Both the position numbers and the translations under genes were made by a program. 64,000 bases of DNA from a virus: the IMG/VR virus record IMGVR_UViG_3300029892_000001; one strand, written 5' to 3'. Within the stretch, counting starts at the first letter, position 1. Each line of letters opens with the position of its first letter. The notes beneath the pieces are model-generated. The model saw only the letters and a program-made list of their open reading frames with translations, searched no databases and was not told the DNA's origin. Of the stretch, positions 53,092 through 57,499 are shown piece after piece.

Positions 53092-54711
53092 ATGCCTGTA
53101 ATCGTTGTCAAGAATATTTCACAACAGAGCATTAGCCCTGGTGTCCCTCTCGGCATCCTAAGGCCCGGAAAAACACTCGTGAGGTCTATCAACGTTCGGG
53201 AGTTAGAGGCACTTTCTGACTCATTGAACAAGCTTCAGGAGAAACAGTTAATTCATTGGACTGTTCGTCAGAATCCAGAGGATGTTGGTGACACTGCCGA
53301 CTTTGCCATTGCTGCGTACAGCGCCACAAAAACGTTTGCCCGGATGGACATCTGGGTAGATGCCGTGAGGGGTTCGGACACCAATGACGGCCACTCGCCA
53401 AATGAGCCGCTCGCGACACTAATCGAAGCCGAAAGTAGAATTCCAGATTTCGTTGCACACCCTGTGGTCGTCCACGTAGCCCCTCACGCTGGGGCTGGCT
53501 ACGCTCCTCCGCATTTCCGGCCCAGAGTGCTGCGTAGTACAATTGACATCGTTGCTGATTCTGGCGGGACAAACAACGACGGTTTGAATGTTCTGTTCGG
53601 GCCCTCGACTGCGCAGACAGGTACGCTCCACACGAAGTGCGTAGCACCTGCAGGGTTGGGCGTCGATACGTATCGAGGCAAGACGATTGAGGTCTTGTCG
53701 GGCTTAGCGGCCACGTACCGTCGTACTATCAAAACAAACACAGACACCGACATCATCCCTGCTTGTTTGTGGGAGGGATCTACGATCGCTCCAGGCGACA
53801 GCTTTCGGATTGTTGAGCCCGTTACACAAATCAATCTCGATCAGACACCCCACCTAAACTACTGGGAAATAGAGGGCAGTCGAGGAGACGACGTGACCTA
53901 TGGGTTCAACGGGGATAGTAGAACCCGCCCAGGAATTCAGTTTGTCAATTTCAAGTTCGTTCATAGCGGAGCCACAAAGCATATCCATTGCGGACGCAAT
54001 ACTCGGATATTCGGGTGCGAATTTGCTGCACCCGTAATTCTTACCGGCGGAAGCGTAGCGGTGGCGATCGATCAGATTTCCGGACCTCCACAAAATCAGA
54101 TCTATGAAGAGCTGGCAAATGTTGGTACCCGCCTTGCTGGAGTGCACCCTAAAGCTTGGGTCGGCTGGGGTCTTAGCGCGCAGGGCCTCACGATAAGCCT
54201 GACAAATAGTGTTTGGTTCTACGCGTTGGTCGCTTCTAGCATGTCGATATTTGACTCTGACGTAGAATTCCGGGGTGGAAATATCCACACTGGAGGTATC
54301 ACTGTTTTCGGCACGTTGAAGTCGTCCGTTGCTCGCATTGATGGCAAGCAGTACCTCCCAGACTTACAGTTGTACGTTCACAACGAGACAGGCGACGCGA
54401 TTCGAGCACTGGGGGTAGGTGCTCGCGTTTATCTAGTGGAGGCGTATGTTACGTCTACTACAGGTACTGGCGTACGCCTGGAAAAAGGCGCTCACGCGCA
54501 ACTATTTCAGGGTGTGAGTATTACTGCTGTGACCGGTGTAAAGGCAACAGAGGGATCTAGCGTTCAGGTTCGGTCTGCGGTAGGAATCAGTGCGTCTGGA
54601 AACCAGTTAGAGATTGGACCAGTCCCAACAGTAGCGGCTCTCGTTGACATCCCTAACAACGGGGATGCAATCGTAGCGTCAGATAACTCGATAATTCAAC
54701 GCACCACCTAA
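53092..54711 (+). CDS. Virion appendage / receptor-binding-like protein (N-terminal anchor, DUF1565-like motif, beta-helix-like C-terminus)
   Basis: VDAVRGSDTNDG...PLATL; paralogue of 55871-57499. Confidence 0.65.
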   Translation: MPVIVVKNISQQSISPGVPLGILRPGKTLVRSINVRELEALSDSLNKLQEKQLIHWTVRQNPEDVGDTADFAIAAYSATKTFARMDIWVDAVRGSDTNDGHSPNEPLATLIEAESRIPDFVAHPVVVHVAPHAGAGYAPPHFRPRVLRSTIDIVADSGGTNNDGLNVLFGPSTAQTGTLHTKCVAPAGLGVDTYRGKTIEVLSGLAATYRRTIKTNTDTDIIPACLWEGSTIAPGDSFRIVEPVTQINLDQTPHLNYWEIEGSRGDDVTYGFNGDSRTRPGIQFVNFKFVHSGATKHIHCGRNTRIFGCEFAAPVILTGGSVAVAIDQISGPPQNQIYEELANVGTRLAGVHPKAWVGWGLSAQGLTISLTNSVWFYALVASSMSIFDSDVEFRGGNIHTGGITVFGTLKSSVARIDGKQYLPDLQLYVHNETGDAIRALGVGARVYLVEAYVTSTTGTGVRLEKGAHAQLFQGVSITAVTGVKATEGSSVQVRSAVGISASGNQLEIGPVPTVAALVDIPNNGDAIVASDNSIIQRTT

Positions 54712-54727: not shown

Positions 54728-55180
54728 ATGCCCAAGATGAAGCTACCTCTCAGAGTGGTCCCTGAGCCTTGGTCCGTGCTTTATGTGCAGCCCATGGAAG
54801 GAGCCTTGAAGAAGCAAGGACGTAAGTGCGCCAATTGCTTTATGTGGGCACGAGCCGAGGAAAGGTGTGCTATCCTGCCGAAAGATCTTAGCGTTCCTGG
54901 GAACGCTGTGTGCGGATATCACGTCACTGGACGCCCACTACGCTCACTTCAGGAACTTCCAAATCACGGTACTATTCAAGAAGTATCGCCCGAAACATCT
55001 GGTTTTGAGACGGACATCCCCTCTGAGGGGACAATGTGTGGGAACTGTGCCCACTTCACCCCGTCGAAAGCGAACTCCGATACCGGCTTTTGTGCTGTTG
55101 TCGCGAAACAGAACGATAACACACCAGTATACCGAGCTAAGGTTCAGTTCTACGGGTGTTGTACTCGTTGGGAAGGGTAA
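54728..55180 (+). CDS. Tandem HiPIP-like Cys4 domain protein
   Basis: CANC...C...CGYH and CGNC...C...GCCTRW. Confidence 0.55.
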   Translation: MPKMKLPLRVVPEPWSVLYVQPMEGALKKQGRKCANCFMWARAEERCAILPKDLSVPGNAVCGYHVTGRPLRSLQELPNHGTIQEVSPETSGFETDIPSEGTMCGNCAHFTPSKANSDTGFCAVVAKQNDNTPVYRAKVQFYGCCTRWEG

Positions 55181-55181
55181 A

Positions 55182-55869
55182 ATGGAAAACGTAATTGTGG
55201 AGATCCGTGCTGGAGAGGGCGGAGACGATGCGAAGGCCTTGGTTCATGAGCAGTTTGGAATTTACGCCAAGCTGATGGACCGGAGGGGACTTTGAGTGTA
55301 CCCTCATTGAGGAACGCCCTGGATTTCTGAGTTTTCAGGCGAGTGGAAAGGGAGCAAAGAAGACATTTGAGTTGGAGGCGGGAGGCCATCGTTGGCAACG
55401 AATCCCGCCGAACGAGAAGCGCGGACGAGTCCAAACTTCAACGGTAACCGTAGCTGTGCTAGAGGAGCCCTCAGAGACTACACTCCACATCGAGGAGCGG
55501 GACATTGAGTGGACAACCTGCCGAGGTTCTGGCGCTGGCGGACAGCACAGAAATCGAACGGAATCGGCAGTTCAGATGACGCACATCCCTACTGGCGTAC
55601 GTGTTCGAGTTGAGAACGAGCGCAGTCAGCACCAGAACCGGGATTTAGCGTATCGTTTGCTTCGGGCTCGCATCCACGAGATGCAAGTCGCGAAGAAGGC
55701 ACAGGAGCGCGGCGCAAAGCGTCGTGAGCAGATCGGCTCTGGAATGAGAGGCGATAAGATCAGAACTATTCGTCAGCAAGACGGACAAGTAACTGATCAT
55801 CGTACGGACCGCAAAATAAGGTACAAGGACTATATCAGAGGTAATTGGGATGGTCTCTTGCCCACCTAA
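55182..55869 (+). CDS. Class I peptide release factor homologue (RF1-like, lacks domain 1), expressed by +1 frameshift at 55290-55295; about 228 aa
   Basis: ORF1 MENVIVEIRAGEGGDDA...RRGL-stop; +1 frame continues ECTLIEE...GGHRWQRIPPNEKRGRVQTS...GAGGQH...IRT. Confidence 0.88.
55282..55296 (+). promoter_or_regulatory. prfB-type programmed +1 frameshift cassette
   Basis: GGAGG-GGA-CTT-TGA-G: internal SD, 3-nt spacer, slippery CTT, in-frame TGA. Confidence 0.85.
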
Positions 55870-55870
55870 A

Positions 55871-57499
55871 TTAGATCACCCACATGACTTGAGACCCATC
55901 AGAATGGGTTACGTGGTCACCATCCTCTACAAAATCATCATCAGTAGCAATAAGCGGTGTCTTGGTACCGATTTGCCATTGAACTGCGCCGACAGTGGTA
56001 ACTTGATATCCAGGTACTTCTGCAATCCAAACCCTGGCTCCCTGTGTTACCTTCACGGCAGTACCGGTTCCAGAATCTAAGGTGAGCAAACCACCTCCGC
56101 TAGTAATAACAACTTTTGCGCCACGTCTTACATACAGCGCGGTAGTATTAGCTAGTGAAACAATGCTACAGTTGATGTGCAAAGTCGCTAGAGTTCCATA
56201 TACGTAGACTACAGGATCGAGAGATCCTTCAATATTGCTAGTGTTAGCATCTCCTAAAAACTGCGTGTGTCTGTCCACATAGACGTTACAAGAACCATTC
56301 TGTATCTCGCCATATATCTTCATTCCGCTAGTTATTCGAAATGCGGTTAAATATGCCCTATGGCAACCCCAGAATACCACTAGCTCTGCATCGAGTCCGT
56401 GCATATTCAAACCTTGTAGACTGTTGAAGTGTAGCTGGTACAGTGTACAATACATCCCCCAAGCAGCCCATGCTATGCCTGTCTTAGCACCTAGATCCAG
56501 TGCCGCTCGCGCAGCTATACCGTCGATGTGCAATGTGGTATCACATCCTATCTGCAAATGTGATGTTCCTTGCGAGCCTGCAAACGCTGCGATTGTGGCT
56601 GTTCCAATAATCTCTATTCCAAACATGATCAGATTGCCTGCAAACGATGCACGCATATTGTCAGTAGCTCGAAGTTTTAAGTTTACCAATACCAGACCAT
56701 GCGTAGATTGCCTAAAGCCTGAGTTGATATAACCAGATCCCGCGTATCCACAACCCTCGGATATAGTCCAGTGCGAAGGAGTCGGATCAGCTGCTGGACC
56801 AGTTGGCGCATTGATTATAACCGTCGATTCTGTGATGCGATACTTACTCCCTGGCGGTACCAACGTGGAAAATGCAACCTGCGGGGTAATTGCAGTACCG
56901 ACATTTGTTCTTAGTATTCGACGCTCCGTCGCTAGCGGACCATCAAGGATTTCCAACGTCTTCCCACGAAGCGCATCATCTGCACCAGGCGCAATATCAA
57001 CAGTCAGGAACAAATTGTGATTTGAGGTAATAGTGCCAGACGCTAGTACGTTGTATCCTTCACCAATAACATATATGTTAGCATGACAGATTCTTCCACG
57101 GAACGTAGGTGGATCATAGCCTGATCCTGGATGTGGCCTAACATGGATGAATACTGGATGGTCTACATAGAAGGGGACCCTCTTTTCAACTTCCACCAAA
57201 GAAGCAAGTGGAGCATCTTTTGATCCTGAATTTTCGTCTGAACCAGTGGATGCATCGACATATAGGTGAACATCACCATAGGTTCTGGCCGCAGGTGCAG
57301 TTTGTGAGTCAGAGTTTGACAGAACTTCTACCGATATACTGCCTAGACTCTCTAGTCGTACCAGGCGCTCTCGTGTTTTTTCTAATTCATCACTTGTTAA
57401 CTCTAAAACTTTTGATTGTCCTGGTTTAAGTGCCCCTATAACCGATCCAATTGATATGGTATTTTTTGTTGTGTTTGATATAGCTATTGTAGGCATCAT
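55871..57499 (-). CDS. Virion appendage / receptor-binding-like protein, low GC
   Basis: VDASTGSDENSG...PLASL; paralogue of 53092-54711. Confidence 0.65.
   Translation of the reverse strand: MMPTIAISNTTKNTISIGSVIGALKPGQSKVLELTSDELEKTRERLVRLESLGSISVEVLSNSDSQTAPAARTYGDVHLYVDASTGSDENSGSKDAPLASLVEVEKRVPFYVDHPVFIHVRPHPGSGYDPPTFRGRICHANIYVIGEGYNVLASGTITSNHNLFLTVDIAPGADDALRGKTLEILDGPLATERRILRTNVGTAITPQVAFSTLVPPGSKYRITESTVIINAPTGPAADPTPSHWTISEGCGYAGSGYINSGFRQSTHGLVLVNLKLRATDNMRASFAGNLIMFGIEIIGTATIAAFAGSQGTSHLQIGCDTTLHIDGIAARAALDLGAKTGIAWAAWGMYCTLYQLHFNSLQGLNMHGLDAELVVFWGCHRAYLTAFRITSGMKIYGEIQNGSCNVYVDRHTQFLGDANTSNIEGSLDPVVYVYGTLATLHINCSIVSLANTTALYVRRGAKVVITSGGGLLTLDSGTGTAVKVTQGARVWIAEVPGYQVTTVGAVQWQIGTKTPLIATDDDFVEDGDHVTHSDGSQVMWVI

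Follow-up and report, generated by a model that had tools for sequence, protein, structure and literature searches.

A predicted prfB-type +1 frameshift site in a short RF1-type release factor family carried mostly by huge phages

A release factor gene at positions 55182 to 55869 of the viral record IMGVR_UViG_3300029892_000001 is closed by an in-frame TGA after 37 codons and continues in the +1 frame, which raises the question of whether this gene is broken or is expressed by a programmed frameshift of the kind described for bacterial prfB. We analyzed one strand of a 64,000-nucleotide stretch of the record, referred to here as the window. The complete IMG/VR record (392,328 bp, judged 100% complete) is a phage, with matches to a major head protein (phrog_2522), a portal protein (phrog_16240), and a large terminase (phrog_17415) all within the window, and the split gene is the only release factor gene of the genome. 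A first-pass annotation made from the sequence had read ORF1, an internal GGAGG, a CTT-TGA-G junction, and an open +1 frame at this locus, and the sequence bears out that reading (Table 1).

Table 1. Coordinates of the split release factor gene and its predicted frameshift site in the window
Feature	Position	Strand	Evidence or remark
Whole gene, RF1-type class-I release factor without domain 1, 228 aa, in two frames	55182..55869	+	PCRF (100-194) plus RF-1; TIGR00019 prfA 225 bits versus prfB 149; PDB RF1 E 1.7e-49
Possible, weak ribosome-binding site GGGAAGGG ahead of ATG 55182	55170..55177	+	Read from sequence; GGAGG-like there in most homologues
ORF1 in frame 0, 37 codons (RF domain 2, first strand and long helix), with gating stop TGA	55182..55295	+	N-part HMM 69 bits, frame 0
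Internal Shine-Dalgarno-like GGAGGGG	55282..55288	+	GGAGG core 55282-55286, end exactly 3 nt before CTT
Slippery CTT-T, predicted re-pairing of peptidyl-tRNA-Leu from CUU to UUU	55290..55293	+	CTTT invariant in 75/75 split loci
Gating stop TGA (55293-55295), then G (55296)	55293..55296	+	Read from sequence
ORF2, +1 frame: 191 codons (remaining domain 2, domains 3 and 4) plus TAA 55867-55869	55294..55869	+	C-part HMM 311 bits, +1 frame
Tripeptide PPN in place of RF1 PxT	55405..55413	+	Usual His seven residues later is Gln; relatives mostly PPT, also PPN, SPT, SPL
Catalytic GGQ motif	55537..55545	+	Invariant across family alignment

The ATG at 55182 to 55184 lies one base beyond the TAA (55178 to 55180) of the upstream gene, and the ORF1 protein, MENVIVEIRAGEGG...MDRRGL, takes its last codon from CTT at 55290 to 55292. 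A TGA at 55273 to 55275 closes the +1 frame, which from 55276 onward stays open to the terminal TAA. The upstream ORF (54728 to 55180) encodes a Cys-rich protein that matches HiPIP weakly, and no domain 1 is encoded there. The factor gene and this Cys-rich neighbor are enclosed by a pair of convergent paralogues of ∼540 aa (53092 to 54711 on the plus strand and 55871 to 57499 on the minus strand; 29% identity, E 3e-47), neither of which had a match in Pfam or PHROG.

The joined +1 product (P0001, 228 aa) covers Pfam PCRF positions 100 to 194 and the entire RF-1 domain. It scored highest against the prfA family, lower against prfB, and lowest against prfH (97 bits), with every score under the cutoff of its model. 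The prfA model (TIGR00019, cutoff of 423 bits) matched over profile positions 112 to 342 only, and at 225 bits the product is not a full four-domain RF1. It is not an RF2 either, since the bit scores favor prfA, the tripeptide is PPN, and domain 1 is absent. Nor does it belong to the PrfH/RtcB rescue pair, because its PrfH score lies below the cutoff of 167 bits and no rtcB gene or other conserved neighbor accompanies it; clustering the ORFs of 90 family loci for conserved partner genes returned only the factor itself and antisense shadows. The product is colinear with Thermotoga maritima RF1 residues 87 to 316 without a gap over the junction (E 1.7e-49), and in the family alignment the conceptual joined product shows no indel at the junction, including against natural contiguous relatives. 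Among RF1-type features, the factor has the GGQ, and its tripeptide is PPN, where most relatives have PPT. The Pfam span, the prfA score, and the RF1 alignment all bear out the first-pass description of an RF1-like factor without domain 1.

We used an AlphaFold2 (AF2) model of a natural contiguous relative of the window's product (P0003; pLDDT of 88) to place the junction in the fold. The model superposed on ribosome-bound RF1 with a TM score of 0.90, on RF2 with ∼0.85, and on PrfH with 0.64. The part equivalent to ORF1 forms a strand (residues 2 to 10) and a helix (residues 15 to 34), and the junction falls in the loop between this helix and the next strand (residues 38 to 45). In this model the strand and the helix supplied by ORF1 are integral parts of domain 2, so that a product begun within ORF2 would be predicted to miss both.

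We searched 5.8 billion proteins for relatives and judged them from the 120 best matches. The close matches were of two kinds, contiguous proteins of 219 to 236 aa and proteins of 190 to 220 aa that begin with a stretch of out-of-frame junk ending in G-G-x-F-D/E, an ending that is the +1 reading of GGNGG-NNC-TTT-GAN. By this classification the 120 best matches comprised 55 contiguous proteins, 46 split genes, and 19 proteins called from farther downstream. IMG/VR contained 364 contigs with a relative. Among the best 80 of these, the contig was 100 kb or longer for 49 relatives and 200 kb or longer for 24. In reference genomes, the short family was found in Myxococcota and Bradymonadia assemblies and on the Archangium gephyra chromosome, with the lower matches being ordinary RF1 genes; split copies were present in 4 of 301 sampled genomes of Archangium's phylum. 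The A. gephyra locus (L081, chromosome positions 3539004 to 3547682) has a GT4 glycosyltransferase and a beta-propeller protein as neighbors, and its 8.7-kb surroundings contain no recognizable phage genes and no clear prophage genes.

We then searched separate N-part and C-part hidden Markov models (HMMs) against the three forward frames of 161 loci. The two parts were split between frames 0 and +1 at the same position in 75 loci, namely, 65 of the 80 viral contigs, nine bacterial-genome loci (mostly Myxococcota), and the window. These 75 loci share roughly 50 to 85% protein identity and are all split at one same codon, with CTT directly before the frame-0 stop in every one, an agreement well beyond what chance would give. 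The gating stop is TGA in 57 (76%), TAG in 15 (20%), and TAA in 3 (4%), unlike the stops of the prfB motif in 8,164 genomes, which are TGA in 98.6% and TAA in 1.4% and never TAG (PMC12421855). The first-pass annotation had named TGA as the sensed stop, which holds for the 57 TGA loci, the window among them, but not for the TAG and TAA loci elsewhere in the family. The base after the gating stop is C in 52 loci, G in 19 (the window among them), A in 4, and T in none.

We scored the Shine-Dalgarno (SD)-like element on the 71 unique split genes. GGAGG stood exactly 3 nt upstream of CTT in 37, and a further 15 had a 4-mer of GGAGG within 2 to 4 nt; an SD-like 4-mer was present in 55 of the 71, and a recognizable SD-like element was absent in 12. 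At the homologous codons, GGAGG was found in 38 of the 71 split genes versus none of 15 unsplit short-family members and none of 68 bacterial RF1 genes. Codon 34 is CGG in 51 and codon 35 is AGG in 40 of the 71 split genes, and where unsplit members have this Arg-Arg pair, it is encoded by other codons. By this comparison the GGAGG element is specific to split genes. The 60 nt after the site gave no sign of a stimulatory RNA structure, with no excess folding across the 71 genes (mean z score, −0.14). The conservation across homologues that the first-pass annotation had named as its check is found for the CTT-stop in all split loci and for GGAGG in about half of the split genes and in no unsplit one. 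The elements of the prfB-style +1 cassette that it had proposed are also there: CUU and an in-frame stop, GGAGG 3 nt upstream, and a +1 product colinear with RF1. Because the site has been conserved through the divergence of 75 relatives, the cassette at 55282 to 55296 is probably a real recoding site and not an error.

In the phylogenetic tree, the short family formed one group against bacterial RF1 (support of 100), and all split genes fell in a single 82-row clade (SH-aLRT support of 89), which shows a single origin of the split. The basal short-family lineages are contiguous or carry an in-frame TGA. Three contiguous genes (L014, L015, and L018) are nested among the split genes with support of 95 to 97, and their nested position indicates later losses of the split. 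Where split relatives read CGGAGGGGTCTTTGAC, the contiguous relative P0003 has CGGA-GGGTCTTTGAC, which is shorter by one G and retains CTTTGA as a fossil. As a one-G deletion of the split site, P0003 means that the joined protein exists naturally as predicted. The junction of basal unsplit members reads GGN TTT GAR, which a single inserted C would turn into GGT CTT TGA G. Residue 37 of P0001 aligns near RF2 residue 160 (query residues 6 to 214 versus 1gqe residues 130 to 344), and the prfB frameshift is at codon 26, in domain 1 (PMC12421855). The two sites are therefore not homologous, as the first-pass annotation had held. It had left open whether the cassette evolved independently or was relocated; an independent origin is favored over relocation from prfB, since all split genes are in one clade inside the short family and the basal junctions are one C away.

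From these results we consider it likely that 55182 to 55869 encodes a 228-aa RF1-type factor made by a prfB-type programmed +1 frameshift gated by termination at UGA. The mechanism that we infer, comprising the slip itself, its dependence on release factor activity, and the factor's codon specificity, would run as follows. A ribosome translating ORF1 would have CUU in the P site and UGA in the A site, with the GGAGG 3 nt upstream paired with the anti-SD sequence of 16S rRNA, whose use by the host we assume. If the UGA is read by a release factor, the 37-residue peptide would be released. If it is unread, the peptidyl-tRNA-Leu would slip from CUU to UUU, and +1 translation would give the full factor, ...MDRRGL-ECTLIEER.... 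Slow termination at the gating stop would give more full factor. In the window's phage the gate would be UGA, the codon read by host RF2, and the phage factor probably does not read UGA, to judge from its RF1-like decoding loop, so that RF2 would cross-regulate synthesis of the factor, and the factor would not regulate itself.

The first-pass annotation had suggested that the phage makes this factor only when host RF2 activity at UGA falls. By analogy with prfB, whose cassette responds to RF2 (PMC12421855), we also infer that the factor would be made in response to falling host RF2. However, this logic is incomplete, since an RF1-type factor induced by weak UGA termination could not relieve that weakness. 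The PPN/Gln loop may have a different codon specificity. The changeable stop codon, together with a twin arrangement in one 12.7-Mb myxobacterial genome (L194, G260:C1:1576000-1585500), would show RF2 sensing to be only one version of gating in the family. The myxobacterial genome has two short-factor copies 4.1 kb apart that are 95% identical and have the same decoding loops, and the gate of one reads CTT TAG C and that of its twin CTT TGA G. The data fit a sensor with a switchable input, whether or not the product itself reads UGA. We tentatively suggest, with less than even confidence, that the cassette defines a tunable family of termination-capacity sensors, in which a huge phage or a myxobacterium, through its choice of UGA, UAG, or UAA as the gate, sets which release factor activity controls an RF3-independent spare factor. 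The UGA versions would then be the first natural cross-class regulation over the virus-host boundary, and the twin TAG- and TGA-gated copies would form an OR gate.

The gating stop bears on whether the device could instead be truly autoregulatory, with a short factor of broadened or omnipotent specificity that also reads UGA, so that every gate is recognized by its own product as in prfB. We found no link across the family between the gating stop and either the decoding tripeptide or GC content, and the TAG gating state requires at least 11 changes on the tree. That the gate switches among TGA, TAG, and TAA this often, without a matching change in the decoding loop, would suit autoregulation, as would the myxobacterial twins, which pair the same loops with TAG and TGA gates in one genome. 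The loop itself varies in the family (PPN, SPT, SPL, and PPS, with the His often replaced by Gln), which would also be in keeping with broadened reading. However, in most members the standard P-x-T (PPT) is kept, along with an RF1-like Gln at four residues' distance ahead of it; the family's scores place it with prfA and not prfB, and the fold superposes better on RF1 than on RF2. A factor that reads purines at both stop positions 2 and 3 is, moreover, expected from tripeptide-swap work to hit UGG too. Autoregulation in this sense is therefore unlikely, and we continue with a UGA-gated factor under cross-regulation as the preferred reading.

A frameshift at a fixed ratio, which would keep the factor yield low and constant or would also put the 37-residue peptide to use, would sense nothing. 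Every stop type is tolerated at the site, 12 of the 71 split genes do without an SD-like element, and contiguous relatives are common (55 of the 120 best protein matches), as might be expected of a merely attenuating site. A slow sense codon would suffice for such a site, though, and yet a stop is kept in the A site in 75 of 75 loci; the avoidance of T and preference for C after the stop point to a tuned termination strength, and the same cassette in prfB responds to RF2. We regard a constant-ratio frameshift as quite improbable.

The alternative that the locus makes two separate products, the 37-residue peptide and a shortened factor started within ORF2, is very improbable. A TTG at 55372 does open a 165-aa ORF, and gene callers give such models, but the shortened factor would miss ∼63 residues, which in domain 2 form the long helix and the first three strands. 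ORF1 is no less conserved in sequence than the rest, and with the +1 frame closed upstream of 55276, these residues could not come from a start in that frame.

We compared assembled contigs at the site. Two, possibly from the source samples, with word depths of 38 and 26, are identical to the window there, and the contigs of an independent sample, a rock metagenome, have a hole at 55112 to 55310 that covers it. A broken gene or assembly error, in the form of a one-base indel in the G run at 55282 to 55288, has a negligible chance of being correct: the site does follow a run of four G's, the contiguous P0003 differs by one G, and the agreement in the window rests on assembled contigs, but 75 independent assemblies with varied upstream sequence, many without a G run, have the split at the same codon and always at CTT-stop, both parts stay conserved as protein, and the two contigs with word depths of 38 and 26 agree at the site.

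The predicted cassette is like that of prfB in its slippery CUU-U, A-site stop, SD-like element exactly 3 nt upstream, and release factor gene as carrier. It also shares with the prfB arrangement (SD-like element, 3 nt, CUU UGA C) a non-T base after the stop and the absence of downstream RNA structure. Unlike prfB, the phage-family gene is RF1 type and not RF2, lacks domain 1, has the site at codons 37 and 38 in domain 2, and is carried mostly by huge phages, and in its TGA-gated form the short factor probably does not read its own gating codon. Bacterial RF1 (prfA) is the best match in sequence and fold, and the window's factor retains the GGQ, the Gln preceding the tripeptide, and a loop that is RF1-like and unchanged in length. 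The factor differs from RF1 in having 228 aa instead of ∼360, no domain 1, the PPN tripeptide, and Gln in place of the loop His, and also in the predicted frameshift: among the 12,753 genomes of a 2025 survey, there was no evidence that prfA undergoes programmed frameshifting (PMC12421855). PrfH (RF-H, paired with RtcB) is likewise a factor of about 200 aa with no domain 1, but the similarity is weak (97 bits versus 167; TM of 0.64), there is no rtcB neighbor, and the window's factor keeps an RF1-like decoding loop.

Huge phages have been reported with RF1 and RF2 (Al-Shayeb 2020, PMC7162821), and as a phage-borne class-I factor, the window's product resembles the release factors of huge and recoded phages. 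Neither that paper nor the Borges 2021 preprint (10.1101/2021.08.26.457843) mentions a frameshift in release factors, and in the literature searched we found no published description of one in phage or RF1-type release factors. The CUU-stop entries in RECODE are all prfB (PMC10885494). The CUU-stop device has been published so far only for bacterial RF2, and here it is predicted in an RF1-type family carried mostly by huge phages. The short family would be a second, independently evolved use of the textbook prfB recoding signal, carried mainly by phages of 100 to 600 kb and with a gating stop free to change. It offers a natural experiment on what the cassette requires and on how easily it is gained and lost, by the insertion and the deletion of one base, respectively, and it suggests that large phages monitor and top up the termination capacity of their hosts. 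Gene callers mis-model split genes of this kind; the window's own protein stands in the database as a 137-aa fragment.

Some relatives carry in-frame stops. L007:4001-4682 and L009:4001-4682 are sister genes inside the split clade with both parts in one frame and an in-frame stop at the frameshift-stop codon (CTA TGA C in L007 and TAT TAG A in L009), and their flanks read well in the standard code. Their close relative P0087 has Trp at this codon. The stops in L007 and L009 may be gated by read-through or a suppressor. Four basal release factor genes (L044, L053, L070, and L089, the last filed under a Methanobacterium MAG) have one or two in-frame TGAs at other positions, which could be TGA=Trp coding or read-through gating.

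Stop usage was also compared with the gate. In the flanks of L001 to L093, by crude gene calls, genes ended in TGA in 52% and TAG in 24% at TGA-gated loci and in 40% and 37%, respectively, at TAG-gated loci, a weak tie between the gating stop and the locally commonest stop (P = 0.04, from the crude gene calls and ignoring kinship). The earlier remark that genes here often end in TGA fits the complete genome as well: of its ORFs with 150 aa or more, 276 (55%) close with TGA, 116 with TAG, and 109 with TAA. We considered stop codon reassignment in this genome and rejected it, since it is well covered by long ORFs when read in the standard code, and stops flanked by long open stretches show no enrichment of TAG; unlike recoded phages, the genome looks standard coded overall. 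Outside the window, at 105653 to 105726 of the genome (G000), is a 74-nt tRNA with the anticodon CUA, of the amber-suppressor type. Such a UAG suppressor conflicts with an RF1-type factor encoded by the same genome, unless the two act at different times or the factor no longer reads UAG. The genome encodes 44 tRNAs and a transfer-messenger RNA (tmRNA) in all, and its tRNA-Leu with the anticodon AAG is cognate to the slippery CUU.
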